Shown piece after piece: positions 10,478 to 17,921 of a stretch of 20,722 bases of DNA. Made by a program: the position numbers and the translations under genes. A model generated the notes under the pieces. It saw only the letters and a program-made list of their open reading frames with translations. It was not told where the DNA came from and ran no database searches. Within the stretch, counting starts at the first letter, position 1; every line of letters begins with the position of its first letter. Source of the stretch: Vermamoeba vermiformis (Eukaryota); the NCBI GenBank assembly GCA_045837725.1, contig JBEWZL010000251.1:62001-82722 (forward strand), read 5' to 3'.

Positions 10478-10792
10478 TTATAAATTTGTAAAAAAATTTT
10501 CTTTATGGTCACTTACCGATAACTTAAGCTTCTTAGGCTGAGGAAGCGCGGCCATCAATTTATCAGTGATAGTAGCGAGAATTCTAAGCTGCATCTCGCT
10601 CTTTGACCCAGTCTCGAGGCCCAACTCCTTGCAAAAGTGCGTCAATTGCTCTTCAGTAACAACTCCATTAGCGATGTCGTTCTTAGACTCTAAAAGCTGC
10701 TTGAAGAAGTCGTCGTGTGGTTCGTGGATGTGATCGTTGCCCTGATCGGTGTTATCAACATGAATTGAATCGACTTGGCTTACGGTGCTCAT
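10478..10792 (-). CDS. Small protein with SAP-like helix-extended-helix motif; 3' end uncertain (probable intron donor at 10516)
   Basis: ATG at 10792. TEEQLTHFCKELGLETGSKSEMQLRI resembles the SAP consensus (L...L...GL...G.K..L..RL). Basic PKKLKL could be an NLS. Confidence 0.5.
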   Translation of the reverse strand: MSTVSQVDSIHVDNTDQGNDHIHEPHDDFFKQLLESKNDIANGVVTEEQLTHFCKELGLETGSKSEMQLRILATITDKLMAALPQPKKLKLSVSDHKENFFTNL

Positions 10793-10980
10793 TATAATTA
10801 TGTGGTTAAGTAGAGCCGTGGTCTTTTGCAAGGAGTGAATAATTTGAATGAAGGAACGCCCGAGAAAAAAGGTACACCAAACTTTTACGGAAATTTCGTG
10901 AGGACGCCGGTGGCCGCGTTCTTTTTTATTTCTAATTACTTGTAGAATACAACAATACCGCGAGTGCTAGGACAAGCAAC

Positions 10981-13900
10981 ATGGAAAAAGAAAAGGTAAC
11001 ACAGATTTGAAGCGACATAACGACCGACAATCCGTTGCCGTTTTTTTGACATCACGAGTTATCATTTTACGTTTAGGCATTAATTACCATTTATTTTTTA
11101 CTTACACGTTTGGAGGAGTGTTTGACAAATTGAGATCTAAATTGGAACGTAATTATTTAAAATTACACAGCCCTTATTTTAGCGTGCTTACTGCATAGAT
11201 TATTGTAAAAATATCCAAATAACGTGAAATATTTTTAGGTGCTTTTTATCCTTCGTGGTGTGTCTGGATCCGGCAAGTCAACTCTTGCTCGCGAATTGGC
11301 CGGAGAAAATGGCGTAGTATTGAGTACAGACGATTTTTTCATCAATCCAACTACTGGTGGATATGATTATAATACTCAAGCACTTCCCAAAGCCCACTAT
11401 TGGAACCAAATCCGAACTAAAATGGCAATGCAAAAATTAACAAGCCCTGTAGTCATTGATAATATGAATTTGACTGCATGGGATGCTCGACCATATATTA
11501 TACTAGCATACGAATATGACTACACACCTAAAATAGTTGAACCGCAAACGCCTTGGCGGATGGATCCCGAAGAACTTGCCAAAAAATCGAGTCACGTGAC
11601 GAATGCAAATGCAATTAAACAAATGCTAGGCAAGATGGAAGATTATAGTGTTGATGACGCTATTAAATCTAGCGCACCTGTTGGTCACGTGGAGTTAGAC
11701 GACCGTGACAAAAAACGTGTCGAACAGCGACTTGTGACCGCTGAAGAAGAGAATCAAGATAAGAATATTAAGAACAATACTAACATGAAGACTGACGGTG
11801 CCGCTCACATCAAATCTAGTGGCTCATTGTTGGTTCAAGTCACCAAGAACGACGGCCAAAAACAGACTTTCAAGCCGGTCATCATCAAAAGTTCGGACTG
11901 GACTGCATTTTTGAAAGCAGCTTGCAACAAAATTAACGCAAAGTATACGCCGAAAGCACGTGTATTCACCGTCCGCGGCGAAGAAATTTCAAAAGTTGAA
12001 GATCTCGAACCGAACATCCAGCTAGTCGTTTCAGAGAAAGGTCTGGATTTTATTCCCATGGCGTTGAAAATGACCGCAGCAGAGCGACGAGAGGCAAAGA
12101 TGAAAAAAGCATTGGAACAAACGAATGAAATGTTGCACGCTATTTCAGTGAATGATAATAGTGACAATAAGAGCTATCAAGCCAAGCATAAAAACAACTC
12201 GCGTGGCTGGGAGAAGTTGCCGCTCGGAATTTCGGAGATTTTGGATGGATTTCTATATTTGGGCAATGTCCGTGATGCGCACTCGGAAGAACAGTTGCAA
12301 CAGTTTGACATCAGTCACATTCTCAACATGTCAAATGACGCGTCAAATTCAAGCTTTGATTTTATCACTTACAAAAGAATTCCCATCGCCGACGATGAAT
12401 TTCAAAATGTCACATCAGTGCTGGATCTTTGCATAGATTTTATCGATTCAGTGAAAGCCGCCAACGGTCGAGTACTCGTTCATTGCACAAAAGGCAAGAG
12501 CAGAAGTGCAACAGTGATCATGGCGTATTTATTGAAGAGTTACAAATTGACCTTGAAAGAAGCGTACCGATTGGTCAAATCGAAGCGCGATGAAGTTAGG
12601 CCCAATTCGAACTTCGTCAGACAATTAATGCAAGTCGAAAAACAAATCAACGGTATTGGTAAGACATTTAAAACATGATAATATATAAGTACTATATTAC
12701 AACTTTTTTTACGAAATTAGTTTCGATTTGGATCTGGATCACTTTTTCTAATTTCTTTTTTTGGCAATAGTGACACTGGATTGGGTGGACATCGAATCAG
12801 AGTACAAGTCAATTTTGGATTGGCTGCAGAAGAATTCAGTGCCCAACAAACAGCCAACACATTTCTGGTGGGAAGTGTTGTCCAAGTCCAAGTACCACAT
12901 CCCGCAAGAAAAATTAGACGAATTATTCGCGGAATTTGCAAGGTCAGCCGTGGTTAGAAAAGAGCCGTTGAAATTGGTGGAGCTGCGTGGACCTCAAACG
13001 TTCAAGTTGCATCTGGATCTCGACGTTAAAATGGAAGAAAATTCGTGGAAAGAAATGGAGATTTTGGAAGCGTTCTTGCCCGAGATTATGAATGCGGTCA
13101 ACACGAAATTTCCTAATATGGAAAGTTCATTCGTTTGCAGTGGACTTGTCGGACCATTTTACACATTAAGTAACCCCGACGTCAATTACAAGTATGGATA
13201 TCATTTGGTTTGGCCAAATATAGTAATCAACGAGCAACAGCTCGCAGAATTTTTGCAAAGTTTAGCGAAGACCTTTGCGGCTATGCAAGAAACAAAAGAA
13301 TACCCCGAAAACTTCCCAATGGACGCCATAACAGCGAACAACACGTGGGAAGAGATATTTGATTACAGTTTGATTGAAAATGATAGCGGCATCAGAATGT
13401 TAGGCTCGCAAAAAGTATTTTCGTGCAAAGTTTGTCAGAAGAACGACGAGGCCAAGAAAAAAGCGAAAAATAACAAGGCTTCAAAGGTAGCCAACGAACC
13501 TTGCAAATTTTGCAATGATACTGGCATGTTGGATCCTAGGTACCTATATCATTTAATTTTATTACTCCGGATCTGACATTTTATTGAACAAGGGTCCACA
13601 AGTTCATGGGAGTCTACGATGCAAATGGCAAACTCAATGAAACCAAAACGAAACAATTGCTTGCTGCCGATGATATGAATGCCTTAGTAGAGAAATTATC
13701 GTTGTTGTCTATTCTCGATCGAACCGTGGATCTGACGCGTAAGAGCACTTTGCGTACAAAAAATTTTCCTATGACAACGATCAAATACGATGAAATTTTA
13801 TGCTCTGATAGTAGTTGTCGGGGGAACAATGTATTAATCATTTATATGGTATTGTAGCGAAGCCCAAGGCAGCCAAAAAGAAGCAAAGTGACGTCTTGGA

Positions 13901-15104
13901 AACGCAGTTATTTTTGCGAAGTGAAGGCGAAGAAGAGCTCAAAAACAAGTTCAAACTCAAAGTCTCGAGGCATCAAGAACACACCAACTTGCTGCAATTC
14001 TCTTACGGAAAAACTAGCGTAGATTTCGCTCACCCAATCGTGCAAGAATGTCGTGGACTAATTTTAGACGCGCGAAATAATTGGAGCGTTGTCGCGTTCC
14101 CGTACACCAAGTTTTTTAATTGGGGCGAGGCACTTGGCACGGACATAGATTGGAACACTGCGTCAGTCACGGAAAAAATTGACGGAAGTTTGGCGATTAT
14201 GTACTGGTACAAGGACAAGTGGCACGTGGCTTCCAGCGCGACAGCAGACGGAGCAGCAGTTCTCGGAAAAGATTTAATCTTTGCAGATCTTTTCTGGGAG
14301 ATTTGGAACAAGAACGAGTACAAATTGCCCGAAGAAACTCATTGCACATTTATGTTCGAAATATTTTCAGCGCGGTGCCCCGTCGTAGTCAAAACTGATC
14401 GAGAGTCCATCATTTTGCACGGAGTTCGCGACAACAAAACTTTCGGAGAATTAGAGCCAAAGCCTATTGCGGAGAAATACTCCTGGGAATGCGCCCAGGC
14501 ATTTGAATTTTCATCTTTGCAACAAGTCTTGGAGGCTTCAAAGCGATTAAATCCAGCGCAACAAGAGGGCTTTGTGGTGCGAGACAGCGAATTTAATCGC
14601 ATCAAAGTGAAATCTCCGCAATACGTGGCACTCGCGCATTTAAATTTCAGCGGCAGCATCAGTCTTAATGCGCGACACATGCTGCAGATTGTCGTCAAGA
14701 ACGAAGGATCGGAGTTTTTAGTGCACTTTCCTCATTTCAAGCAGTTATATCAATTAGTTCAAACAGCGCTGAATAATTTAATCAACAAATTGGATCGAGC
14801 ATTGGATCCGAACAACGAAAACGAGAATGACGAGGTGAATTCAATGGCATTTGATAGACTATTAAATGAGATGAAGCAGCGACAAGTCGAAGATGTCAGA
14901 GAGTTTTTGTCAGAGTATGAAGATCTCGATCTGATTTTTGGATTATTGGATATTGGTTTAGAAGCGAATTCAGACGATGAGAATAAGCACTCGCATTATA
15001 TCAAGCCCTCACAGAATGCGGTAAAAGGCCAAAAAATCTCGAAGAAGGAGAAGACACAGCTGAAACGAGACAGGCAAAGAAAAGGCGCGAATAAATTTGA
15101 ATAG
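10981..15104 (+). CDS. About 1198-aa multidomain nucleic-acid repair protein: P-loop polynucleotide kinase-like + DCX/Ubl-like + dual-specificity phosphatase + AEP primase/polymerase-like + T4 Rnl1-type RNA ligase
   Basis: Exons 10981-10995, 11239-12658, 12771-13539, 13593-13738 and 13858-15104 total 3597 nt. All introns are GT-AG and phase-compatible. Motifs: GVSGSGKST, LSTDDFF and VVIDNMN (kinase); VHCTKGKSRS (DSP); LHLDLD, GYHLVWP and IFD..GIRMLGSQK (AEP); ECRGLI, KFFNWGE, EKIDGS, EGFVV and RIKVK (Rnl1). Confidence 0.85.
11239..11670 (+). other. Domain: N4BP2-like / AAA_33 P-loop (polynucleotide) kinase
   Basis: LFILRGVSGSGKSTLARELAG...VLSTDDFF...AHYWNQ...SPVVIDNMNLTAWDARPY...IVEPQTPW..DPEELAKK matches the N4BP2/N4BP2L-type kinase pattern. 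Confidence 0.88.
12229..12650 (+). other. Domain: dual-specificity (Cys-based) phosphatase
   Basis: ISEILDGFLYLGN...ISHILN...IPIADD...RVLVHCTKGKSRSATVIMAYLL...VKSKRDEVRPNSNFVRQL. The CX5R motif lies within 12481-12507. Confidence 0.95.
12771..13738 (+). other. Domain: archaeo-eukaryotic primase (PrimPol / NCLDV-type AEP)-like with CxxC...CxxC insert
   Basis: Motif I FKLHLDLD, motif II GYHLVWPN and motif III WEEIFD...GIRMLGSQK, followed by CKVC...CKFC. Confidence 0.75.
13890..14800 (+). other. Domain: T4 RNA ligase 1-like ATP-dependent nucleotidyltransferase
   Basis: Motif I KIDGS (14175-14189), FMFEI, motif IV EGFVV (14565-14579) and motif V RIKVK. The Rnl1-type N-terminal ECRGLILD and KFFN motifs are also present. 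Confidence 0.92.
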
Positions 15105-15291
15105 TTGGTTGACATTCAATCAGACTATTATTTTGTAATGCATTCTGTTTTGATACTAGAACCATTACCGTGTTGTTGATTAGTATCAAAGCACTGACTA
15201 ACATGCGTTGTTTTGTTCAATTACAGGGCGTCAGATTTTGTAATTTCCATGGATGATTATGGTACAATTGGAAATTTATTATTGTCTTGTT

Positions 15292-16160
15292 CTAATCTTT
15301 TTTGTTACTTTTCATTTGTTTTAATTTCTCGACGACCTCATCGTACGTCACAAAGAAGTTGTTGTAGATCCATTTGCGGGCTGCCTCGCACGTCAGTTCT
15401 TTCGACATGCAGTGCATATGCAAATGATAGACTTCGTATATAAAAGTTAGTATTAATAAACCGCATAAAATAGTCTTATTAAGGTACCTGTATTGAACGG
15501 TGGCATTACAAAGCCGAATCTGAAAACGATGTTAGAACTGACACCATGATAGGAAGATTATATTATCGTGAATATAGATATTATATTATACGCAATGATT
15601 TTAATAATTTTTTAGCGGCATTGCGTTTGCCTGAACGGATCTACTGACCAAAAAATTGGTACTTACTGACATGTATTTTCTTCGATGTTATTCTCGGCTA
15701 AGACTGTTCTAAATCCAGCCATCATATCATTTACTAAATAAGGTCATTATTATCGTTGCTATTGAGCGATGATAAAACTTACGTAAAGGCAGATCCTCTG
15801 GTGTTAGTGCGTGCACGTCGCGAATAGACTTCTTAGGCAGTGCTAAATAATGATGGAGAGCTGCAGGATATTCATCTTTTATAATTACGTAATTATCTTG
15901 CTGTGAAAATTAATTATTAAATTTTTATTATTGAATTATCTGATTTTAAAATTCATGTAGGCTTATGAACTAACGATTTTTTGTGACAATTAATATTAAA
16001 TTAATCAAACCTTCAAGGCGTACTGCGCTTGCTCATCCTGTTCAAGTGCAATCCGTAAAAATTGTTGGGCCAATTTGGTACCTTTAGCATTTTTAGCTGA
16101 AATTATGGTACCTATTACTGCTGATATTACACCAAGGACTATTAATATTGTTGTGAACAT
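15292..16160 (-). CDS. HINT3-like histidine-triad (HIT) nucleotide hydrolase, 168 aa, with N-terminal hydrophobic segment
   Basis: Exons 16160-16011, 15900-15783, 15733-15667, 15519-15488 and 15431-15292 total 507 nt, with GT-AG introns. Product MFTTILIVLGVISAVIGTIISAK...YVIIKDEYPAALHHYLALPKKSIRDV...QFGFVMPPFNTVYHLHMHCMS...FFVTYDEVVEKLK carries the HxHxH triad. Not represented in the ORF track. Confidence 0.88.
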
Positions 16161-16284: not shown

Positions 16285-17025
16285 ATGAGTAGGCTACGCA
16301 GAGATTCAAGTTTTGTTTCAGAACAAGAGTTAGATCTAGAGGCATCAGCCTCGTTGCTTAAAAGATCGACTGGACGTAGAACTATTAAGAAAATAATACA
16401 AGAATACGGATATAAACGATTAGCGATTGATATACTGATTTTTTGTGCTAAACTCGCTGTGTTAATTGGATTAGCCAAACTGATCAGCTACGGTAAGCGA
16501 TAAATATTAATTTTAAAATATTGTATATATTTTTTCGTAATTAATCAAGCATTTTACAGTGTTTATGTTGAAGTATTGCGATTTCATATTCAGATGCGGT
16601 TGCACGTGGGCTTGGGCAGGAGCTGCCTCAAAATGTAACATACATAATCCCGATGGTAAGTAATTTTGATTATAGGTCGACTAATATGGACATCGCTGGA
16701 GGGGATCCGCGTCAAAATGTCATTTTTATTATGCTTTTGTTAACTTATTTTTATGCGGATCTGGCAAATTAAACTAAATAATTTTTAATTAGGCCCTCAT
16801 TGTCCATGGTGCGCAGCTTCATTTCCAGCGACTTTAGCTATCGGACCGTTAACTCAAGCCTCGTTAATTATCTCTTACTTCCTGTTCGAGTGGTTCAAGT
16901 GGCCGCACTTTAGACGTGTTTGGCTCAAATTATTGTTGGCTATTGCGTCATTTTTTGGCGTAGGATTAATTAGCGCGCTAATATTCAAATTGGCGACCAA
17001 TTATCCTTACTTCCTTGTACAGTAA
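16285..17025 (+). CDS. Small multi-pass membrane protein with Cys/His-rich loop, paralogue A
   Basis: Exons 16285-16492, 16560-16655 and 16793-17025. Product has a TM segment, then YCDFIFRCGCTWAWAGAASKCNIHNPDGPHCPWC, then two hydrophobic segments, ending YPYFLVQ*. Exon structure is the same as the neighbouring paralogue. Confidence 0.85.
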
Positions 17026-17220: not shown

Positions 17221-17921
17221 ATGTCTGGGAGGATCAAAGACGGATCTATCTACTACAGATCCCAAGAAATGGATCTCGAAGCCAAACCATTTCTCAGTCA
17301 GACAACTACACATCGGACATTAAAAGAACGGTTCAAAGCATATGGATACAAAAGAATAGCGTTAGACGCGCTAATATTCGTGATTAAGTTAGGCGTTTTA
17401 ATTGGGTTAGCTGAGCTGATCGCTTATGGTCAGTACAAAAATTAGAAAAATATTCCTAATTATTATTTCAAGACTAATACTAATAATCTATAGTATTTAT
17501 GACGAAATACTGCGGTTTTCTTTTCAGATGTGGGTGTACGTGGAGTTTTGCCGGTGGATCCTCGAAATGCAACATTCACAATCCCCATGGTATGTCCGCG
17601 ACATTGATATCGCCAATGATAATAATAATATTAGTAAATCATTTGTACTATTTTCGAGGTCAGATCCGATCTCACATTTCTAAAAAAGGTCCGCATTGCC
17701 CGTGGTGCGCCGCGAAATTTCCTGCAACTCTCGCAATCGCTCCTTTAGCCAAAGCGACGCTAATAGTGACGTACTTTCTGTTTGAATGGTTCAAATGGCC
17801 GCATTTCAGGCGGATTTGGCTTAAACTACTGATTAGCATCGCTTCGTTTTTTATTTATGGATTCTTTAGCGCTGCAATATTTAAAATTGCAACGGGTTAT
17901 CCTTACTTTCTTGTAGATTAG
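17221..17921 (+). CDS. Small multi-pass membrane protein with Cys/His-rich loop, paralogue B
   Basis: Exons 17221-17428, 17494-17589 and 17689-17921. Product contains YCGFLFRCGCTWSFAGGSSKCNIHNPHGPHCPWC...YFLFEWFKWPHFRRIWLKLL...YPYFLVD*. It is a tandem duplicate of 16285-17025. Confidence 0.85.

Follow-up and report, generated by a model that had tools for sequence, protein, structure and literature searches.

Does a single gene of the eukaryote Vermamoeba vermiformis encode, within one polypeptide, a P-loop kinase, a phosphatase, a primase-polymerase and an RNA ligase and, if so, upon which ends or substrates might such a protein act? This question is raised by a 20,722-nucleotide stretch of contig JBEWZL010000251.1 (assembly GCA_045837725.1; contig positions 62,001-82,722), which is termed here the window and whose own positions are used for all gene coordinates. 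A previous interpretation of this DNA (termed here the original prediction) joined four open reading frames (ORFs) and a 15-nucleotide first exon into a protein of 1198 residues, and proposed that this protein adds nucleotides to, heals and seals RNA ends. The analysis described here leads to three conclusions: the locus is a real, spliced eukaryotic nuclear gene encoding one 1198-residue chain; this chain is one member of a small family that is conserved and keeps its active sites intact; and, judging from its sequence, it is probably a rare all-in-one, single-chain RNA heal-and-seal enzyme.

The gene model itself consists of five exons on the plus strand, and the four long ORFs underlying it (11239-12678, 12752-13576, 13588-13857 and 13815-15104) were confirmed. 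When the exons are spliced by script, they yield 3597 nucleotides, corresponding to 1198 codons and a stop, with zero internal stops; all four introns begin with GT and end with AG, and the exon phases agree with the ORF frames. A putative exon 1 (10981-10995) starts with ATG and comprises five codons, after whose 15 nucleotides GTAACA follows, and intron 1 (10996-11238; 243 nucleotides, GTAACA...TAG) separates it from exon 2 (11239-12658, within the open frame 11239-12678), which encodes the kinase, a beta-grasp domain and the phosphatase. Intron 2 (12659-12770; 112 nucleotides, GTAAGA...TAG) precedes exon 3 (12771-13539), which is assigned to the AEP (primase-polymerase) domain by Pfam, an AlphaFold model and Foldseek; intron 3 (13540-13592; 53 nucleotides, GTACCT...AAG) precedes exon 4 (13593-13738), whose conservation among homologs marks it as a C-terminal segment of the AEP module; and intron 4 (13739-13857; 119 nucleotides, GTAAGA...TAG) precedes exon 5 (13858-15104), which according to Pfam, PHROG and a profile match encodes an Rnl1-type RNA ligase, probably including the corresponding C-terminal domain, followed by a basic tail and the stop. 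Because an in-frame TAG lies immediately 5' of 11239 and no methionine precedes the P-loop (the first one in exon 2 falls past it), a separate upstream start exon is required. Only 4 phase-0 candidates running from an ATG to a GT exist between 10701 and 11238; the proposed exon 1 is the nearest of these, and it gives the protein an N-terminus as short as those of its homologs. The assembly of four ORFs and a 15-nucleotide exon, through canonical and phase-compatible introns, into a protein of 1198 residues was thus correct in its coordinates, its GT..AG borders and its open frame.

Two kinds of reads indicate, junction by junction, whether these exons form one transcript: those of a run termed X1, which is 95-99% identical to the window and whose 'RNA' label is a guess, and those of three RNA sequencing (RNA-seq) runs, X2 and X3 among them, from a relative that is 90-95% identical. 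A 206-nucleotide contig from X1 (with 84 and 122 nucleotides on either side) omits exactly the 112 nucleotides of intron 2, and another X1 contig omits exactly the 119 nucleotides of intron 4. If X1 is DNA, then a close relative lacks introns 2 and 4; whichever it is, the contigs join the exons in frame. At intron 4, in addition, loose read ends pass from 13738 into exon-5-like sequence (8 reads from X2 and 6 from X3). The three RNA-seq runs cover 11285-15178, including exon 2, and the flanking bins are empty. Intron 3, for which neither X1 nor the RNA-seq reads contain a joint, is supported by a collinear alignment across the junction with three transcript-derived homologs; indeed, the joined model is collinear with the stored proteins P0001-P0003 across junctions 1, 2 and 3. 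The exon-4 peptide follows the zinc ribbon as a conserved stretch in P0021, P0025, P0028 and P0038 as well as in P0001-P0003, and P0019--a 78%-identical, exon-level protein call--diverges into non-homologous sequence exactly at the start of intron 3. In further support of a single chain, the 40 read differences that were listed (210 further ones lie outside this count) include 34 at codon position 3 of the proposed frames (binomial p 2e-11).

Two points count against the gene model as a whole: the reads provide neither coverage nor a joint for the putative exon 1 and intron 1, and no one read or contig covers the whole transcript in this organism. RNA evidence for the four junctions is therefore divided, with exact skips of introns 2 and 4 on one side and, on the other, an intron 3 without a joint and an exon 1 without coverage. 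These gaps are what one would cite in favor of two or more separate genes, with the fusion being an artefact of adjoining ORFs, as is the recording of close relatives as exon-sized pieces (P0019 and P0167-P0170). Those exon-sized entries, however, derive from short contigs (1.3-6.4 kb), and one of them continues into an intron; moreover, exons are joined across introns 2 and 4, complete single ORFs occur in three transcriptomes and in two other sources, exon 2 lacks a start before the P-loop, and exons 3-5 lack plausible starts of their own with conserved N-termini. Separate genes are accordingly highly improbable. A recent viral insertion was also considered and was rejected, inasmuch as the gene has four introns and a guanine-plus-cytosine content resembling that of its surroundings.

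The same order of kinase, beta-grasp, dual-specificity phosphatase (DSP), AEP and ligase domains occurs in 5 of 166 stored proteins, namely P0001, P0002, P0003, P0012 and P0062, which together with the window protein constitute six full-length members sharing 28-48% pairwise identity. P0001 (1313 residues), P0002 (1341 residues) and P0003 (1244 residues) are complete ORFs from assembled transcripts, and their precomputed Pfam sets contain the kinase, DSP, AEP and ligase. Five shorter entries (P0021, P0023, P0024, P0027 and P0031) are DSP-AEP fragments, and relatives that are 78-90% identical to the window protein (P0019 and P0167-P0170) are present only as exon-sized pieces from short contigs, with the gene split or truncated. 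No member bore a name in the sources searched; one of the exon-sized relatives is labelled 'protein-tyrosine phosphatase' by its source. When 1.84 billion representative sequences were searched with the AEP exon using HMMER, 197 matches were obtained at an expectation value (E) of 1e-3 or less, 23 at 1e-10 and 7 at 1e-30; with 23 AEP relatives at E 1e-10 or better among so many representatives, the fusion family is rare. Among longer proteins, a search with the ligase exon returned 18 matches, P0001-P0003 among them, and one with the AEP exon returned 1056 candidates, none of which was scored. The catalytic motifs of all four enzyme domains, which the original prediction had described as apparently intact, are kept in all six full-length members. 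Because the active sites are intact in six divergent members, the family offers a well-defined target for expression and assay. Four of the six (the window protein, at about 15027-15101, P0002, P0012 and P0062) also end, after the ligase, in a Lys/Arg-rich tail, which could serve as a nuclear signal or in binding nucleic acid.

The kinase (AAA_33; 11242-11637) matches its Pfam family at E 1e-14, scoring 55.5 bits against a gathering score of 27, and the Walker A motif GxxGxGKS (Lys codon 11275-11277) and an Asp after strand 2 are both conserved in 6/6 members. It also matches PHROG 505 ('polynucleotide kinase') at E 4.1e-11. Its named relatives, which are 35-48% identical, are N4BP2L1/2, CNP-like proteins and CCA-transferase-HD-kinase fusions. 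The search for kinase relatives listed 45 proteins with lengths of 260-828 residues, aligned over about 45% of the 300-residue query; none of these 45 contains a ligase or an AEP. Clostridium (CthPnkp) kinase structures in the PDB match weakly (E 0.24), the NCBIfam model bacter_Pnkp matches at 3.9e-4, which is far under its cut-off, and no Pfam tRNA-ligase kinase model matched. By sequence, then, this kinase groups with N4BP2/CNP-type and phage polynucleotide kinases, and it is predicted to possess 5'-OH kinase activity. An AlphaFold model of exon 2 (mean predicted local distance difference test score, pLDDT, 82.5) shows three folded blocks connected by low-confidence linkers. The middle block is a DCX/ubiquitin-like beta-grasp domain (11821-12048) that folds as strand-strand-helix-strand-strand with a pLDDT of 82-92; Pfam detects it there weakly as DCX (E 0.014, under the cut-off), and in the ortholog P0001 at E 1.6e-5 (25.4 bits, over the cut-off of 22).

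The third block is a dual-specificity (Cys) phosphatase (DSPc; 12253-12645), which Pfam identifies with E 5.2e-37 and 127.1 bits against a gathering score of 33.5. Its catalytic Cys (codon 12484-12486) lies within an HCX5R loop bearing the HCxxGxSRS signature, and this loop and the upstream general-acid Asp are kept in 6/6 members.

The AEP domain of exon 3 is recognized by two Pfam models: AEP_C962R (E 8.5e-18; 65.7 bits against 23) and PPL4, or 'Prim-pol 4' (E 3e-12; 47.2 bits against 25). That the family PPL4 already covers this domain weakens the earlier interpretation; exon 4 matches no Pfam family. The catalytic residues--a DxD motif (13016-13024), a His (13202-13204) and an Asp (13361-13363)--are present in 6/6 members. 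Near the end of the domain lies a zinc-ribbon-like CxxC...CxxC insert (13424-13513), whose four Cys are kept in 6/6 members and in most aligned AEP relatives, and which presumably binds metal. For the structural model of the AEP (pLDDT 78.6), the top Foldseek matches are the N-terminal domain of the African swine fever virus (ASFV) PrimPol (E 7e-4, probability 1.0), a herpesvirus primase and E5 of monkeypox virus (MPXV); a phmmer search of the PDB with the AEP exon reached C962R at E 0.4 only. Among viral contigs, the AEP exon gave 14 pattern matches and zero confirmed ones.

Exon 5 matches the Pfam family RNA_lig_T4_1 at 14046-14624 (E 4.9e-20; 72.8 bits against a cut-off of 28.3). Motifs I (KxDG, with its Lys encoded at 14175-14177), III, IV (EG) and V (KxK) are kept in 6/6 full-length members. 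Outside of the family, K106, D108, G109, E167, E236, G237, K249 and K251 are invariant in all nine rows of an alignment of exon 5 with eight non-family relatives, where they align with the motifs of T4 Rnl1. The profile built from this alignment matches T4 Rnl1 (2c5u) at E 2.2e-18 over residues 35-362 of 375; it thereby extends over the T4 Rnl1 C-terminal region as far as residue 362 of 375, with low posterior support there. The exon also matches PHROG 562 (T4 RnlA type) at E 5.5e-42 and falls short of the NCBIfam T4 RnlA equivalog cut-off (51.4 versus 242.25 bits); phmmer with the ligase exon alone matched no PDB chain. Judged by these scores, the ligase is related to T4 Rnl1 without being its equivalog, and ligation activity is predicted. 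The nearest large Atlas clusters consist of viral Rnl1-type ligases from giant viruses and tailed phages; other cellular proteins of the ligase clade carry, according to precomputed Pfam lists, domains associated with RNA ends: RNase_T-type PF00929, the cyclic phosphodiesterase (CPD) domain PF08302, or AAA_33.

It is at the boundary between the AEP module and the ligase, at the point of intron 4, that two orthologs suggest what the chain acts upon. There P0001 (about 790-915) and P0002 (about 780-910) contain roughly 140 extra residues that include two His-x-Thr motifs. In P0002, the insert scores E 5.8e-7 (29.7 bits against 23) with Pfam tRNA_lig_CPD, the model of the Trl1 cyclic phosphodiesterase, and in P0001 it gives a weak match to this model (E 0.048); on this basis, P0001 and P0002 would combine a DSP and an AEP with the full set of three Trl1 activities. 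A hidden CPD exon inside intron 4 of the window gene was considered and rejected, given that the 119 nucleotides are too short and are spliced out. Viral genomes provide a second indication: a kinase homolog occurs within 6 kb of the related ligase in 10 of 80 viral-contig loci. On one viral contig (L066, 4950-7524), genes for an Rnl2-type ligase (Pfam RNA_ligase, 1.5e-8), an Rnl1-type ligase and a stand-alone AAA_33 kinase are consecutive, an arrangement suggestive of a compact viral cassette for RNA repair.

RNA end healing and sealing is thus the favored function, because the ligase is T4 Rnl1-like, the kinase is of the N4BP2/CNP/phage type, and a CPD occurs in one ortholog and, as a weak match, in a second. 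The kinase would phosphorylate 5'-OH ends, and the phosphatase would strip the 2'- or 3'-phosphate from the opposite end, with a Trl1-type cyclic phosphodiesterase opening the 2',3'-cyclic phosphate beforehand in some orthologs; the AEP might restore or fill in nucleotides or else hold both ends together; and the ligase, having been adenylylated on its motif I lysine, would then seal the 3'-OH to the 5'-phosphate. The substrates are likely tRNA or rRNA cleaved by metal-independent ribonucleases. A more elaborate proposal is that the protein serves as an RNA counterpart of non-homologous end joining, in which the AEP would restore lost nucleotides or bridge the ends, the ligase would seal them, and the phosphatase would be a new 2'/3'-phosphate remover from the MAP-kinase-phosphatase (MKP) lineage. 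This proposal is rather doubtful; were it true, the cell would mend RNAs beyond simple healing and sealing, for example, after nucleotide excision by a nuclease.

Several observations weigh against RNA healing and sealing. The CPD-like insert is present in only 2/6 members, being absent from the window protein, P0003, P0012 and P0062. Near the ligase, an AEP, DSP or DCX-like homolog was found in 0/80 of the viral loci, so that the polymerase-ligase link is without independent genomic support outside the family in the data searched. The closest structural matches of the AEP are DNA primases of large DNA viruses, at a template modelling (TM) score of only about 0.3, and no Herpes_UL52 zinc finger was found in the window exons or in the 5 orthologs (E up to 0.05). 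This finger occurs in 4 of 7 scanned stand-alone AEP relatives (about 500-600 residues) and is needed for priming in PrimPol; since the family lacks it, a polymerase or terminal transferase activity is more plausible for the AEP than priming. Lastly, the DSP is 33-44% identical to the catalytic domains of human MAP-kinase phosphatases (DUSP1/4/5/8/10/16), and no RNA-end phosphatase occurs among the best 60 of its 85 PDB matches; being closest to the MAP-kinase phosphatases, it could have a protein as its target.

This last point gives rise to an alternative in which the chain does repair RNA and the phosphatase acts upon a stress MAP kinase or upon the enzyme itself, thereby coupling repair to signaling. 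In keeping with this, the best PDB match of the phosphatase is DUSP16 (E 1.2e-29), Foldseek aligns the phosphatase part of the exon-2 model nearly completely with DUSP5/8/16 (TM 0.93-0.95; 36-44% identity), the top Foldseek list for exon 2 contains only MKP-type or atypical DUSPs, and HCxxGxSRS is retained in 6/6 members; the nearest similarity is not to the RNA-acting DSPs (PIR1/DUSP11 or the baculovirus BVP type), an RNA substrate nonetheless being conceivable. Yet Pfam detects a MAP-kinase-binding (rhodanese-type) domain neither in exon 2 nor in any of the five orthologs, the DSP is fixed between kinase and AEP in the 6 full-length members and 5 fragments, and Pfam links the DSP weakly to two RNA-associated families, with 22.9 bits for Rit1 DUSP-like (cut-off 22) and a score under the cut-off for PTP-SAK, all of which makes a protein substrate distinctly unlikely. 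A role in RNA synthesis or processing would also accommodate the phosphatase: DSP-family enzymes such as PIR1/DUSP11 convert 5'-triphosphate RNA into 5'-monophosphate RNA, and, with polymerase, ligase and Cys phosphatase sharing one chain, the AEP might make short RNAs whose 5'-triphosphate the phosphatase trims and which the ligase joins or circularises, for instance in silencing or some other small-RNA pathway or in a housekeeping splicing role. This is unlikely as well, inasmuch as both the signature of the DSP and its nearest structures point to the MAP-kinase-phosphatase rather than the PIR1/BVP type, the AEP is without the UL52 finger of its stand-alone relatives, and the kinase and the orthologs' CPD are end-healing parts that would be superfluous to pure synthesis.

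The remaining alternative is that the protein repairs DNA breaks, as an analogue of LigD combined with a PNKP-like end cleaner, with the AEP filling in (perhaps with ribonucleotides) and the ligase sealing a ribonucleotide-terminated nick. The AEP does group with DNA primase-polymerases (AEP_C962R and the ASFV, herpesvirus and poxvirus Foldseek matches), its stand-alone relatives show a PrimPol-like layout of AEP plus UL52 finger, the N4BP2 kinase works on both DNA and RNA, the LigD polymerase adds ribonucleotides, and the 3' end of the gene faces a convergent HIT gene of aprataxin-like appearance, which could be due to chance. Set against this are a ligase of the Rnl1 type whose profile match runs into the T4 Rnl1 C-terminal region and which lies outside the DNA ligase families, the adjoining of viral kinase homologs to RNA ligase genes, and the Trl1-type 2',3'-cyclic phosphodiesterase in one ortholog and, weakly, in a second; the last of these argues against DNA repair because such an activity only makes sense on RNA ends. 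A DNA substrate is for these reasons improbable. Returning to the healing and sealing of RNA by one chain, as originally proposed, its support comes from the CPD of the orthologs, the kinase type and the kinase-ligase proximity in 10 of 80 viral loci, whereas the MKP-like phosphatase and an AEP devoid of the UL52 finger speak against it. Its component activities fare similarly: the removal of terminal phosphates is backed by an intact DSP active site but would involve a phosphatase that is not of a known nucleic-acid-end type, and nucleotide addition by the AEP is backed by intact motifs, though not in the form of priming, which the missing UL52-type finger renders less plausible.

How does this chain compare with known systems? 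It shares with T4 Pnkp and Rnl1 the same ligase family, a phage-related P-loop kinase and a kinase-phosphatase-ligase logic, but differs from them in being one chain, in having a Cys-type DSP and in its added AEP and beta-grasp domains. The T4 Pnkp phosphatase is of the acyl-phosphatase (HAD) type, and no HAD family is found among the Pfam matches of the window exons. Like fungal and plant Trl1, it joins an RNA_lig_T4_1-family ligase and a P-loop kinase in one chain, to which P0002 also adds a CPD; unlike Trl1, which is not known to have a DSP or an AEP domain, it places the kinase first and the ligase last, which is the reverse order, and it has no CPD. In view of this order and of the missing CPD, the window protein does not qualify as a Trl1. 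Kinase, phosphatase and ligase domains are likewise combined in the multi-domain healing-and-sealing proteins baculovirus Pnk/Pnl and Clostridium thermocellum Pnkp; these have other phosphatase types and no known AEP, and the scores do not support membership of the window protein in their families. Nor is the window protein a T4-type or bacterial-type Pnkp. The N4BP2/N4BP2L/CNP kinases are the closest named relatives of its kinase, but their own partner domains are either none or the CNP phosphodiesterase PF05881.

The resemblance to LigD that had been pointed out holds in its logic, but not in its domain families. As in LigD, one polypeptide unites an AEP polymerase with an end-cleaning phosphoesterase and with a ligase that depends on ATP, which suggests fill-in or end-bridging before sealing. 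LigD, however, acts on DNA with a ligase of the DNA-ligase family, whereas the window ligase is of the Rnl1 type, the phosphoesterases are unrelated, and the window AEP comes from the branch of nucleocytoplasmic large DNA viruses (NCLDV), herpesviruses and PrimPol. At E values up to 0.1, Pfam finds no DNA ligase and no LigD phosphoesterase (PE) family in the window exons; given these differences in ligase and phosphoesterase, the window protein is not a LigD. PrimPol-like proteins and ASFV C962R, which provide the best Pfam and Foldseek matches, share the AEP fold and its three catalytic motifs; the window family differs from them in lacking a UL52-type finger or helicase domain and in having its AEP embedded between phosphatase and ligase.

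The established RNA heal-and-seal enzymes (T4 Pnkp/Rnl1, Trl1 and bacterial Pnkp) are not known to include a polymerase. The conserved chain described here consequently raises the questions of whether broken RNA is refilled before it is resealed and of whether a DUSP-type phosphatase can be active on RNA ends; a function, if shown, would be the first for the kinase-DSP-AEP-ligase family. As for precedents in the literature, the abstract of a 2016 study by Burroughs and Aravind is said to mention RNA-acting prim-pol domains. Full-text literature searches, whose reach did not extend to that study (PMC5062991), found no paper describing a kinase-DSP-AEP-ligase fusion. According to a 2021 paper, Prim-Pols with predicted RNA-repair roles had already been reported in 2016, and the 2016 study may already show this exact domain order. 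The earlier remark that no described protein with this five-domain order was known is in keeping with the literature found by these searches, but the arrangement is not confined to this protein, in that five other full-length members of the family are on record. In its passages on RNA ligases, a preprint on bdelloid rotifers describes horizontally acquired ligase genes (including PF09511) that are induced upon fungal infection; those passages propose ribotoxin repair and do not describe a kinase-DSP-AEP-ligase architecture.

The neighbors of the gene are ordinary nuclear genes, such as acyl-CoA dehydrogenase exons and an NHL-repeat protein. On the minus strand, a HIT-family gene (15292-15909), which looks aprataxin-like, converges on the 3' end of the ligase gene, their stops being about 190 nucleotides apart. 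Its exon ORF at 15730-15909 matches Pfam DcpS_C (1e-10) and HIT (0.0016), and the ORF at 15295-15531 contains a His-x-His-x-His string. Aprataxin is an enzyme that removes adenosine monophosphate from failed ligations; the position of this gene next to a ligase gene may be due to chance. At the other end, the minus strand has a 162-codon frame (10478-10966) that matches no Pfam family and is oriented divergently from the fusion gene's start; provided that exon 1 is correct, both genes would have one short promoter region, of about 150 nucleotides, in common. Farther downstream, Pfam assigns no family to the neighboring plus-strand ORFs 16789-17022 and 17487-17918 (E up to 0.01 for one and up to 0.001 for the other); both contain long stretches similar to each other, with a Cys-Pro-Trp-Cys segment followed by hydrophobic stretches, and they appear to be tandem paralogs encoding a small membrane protein.

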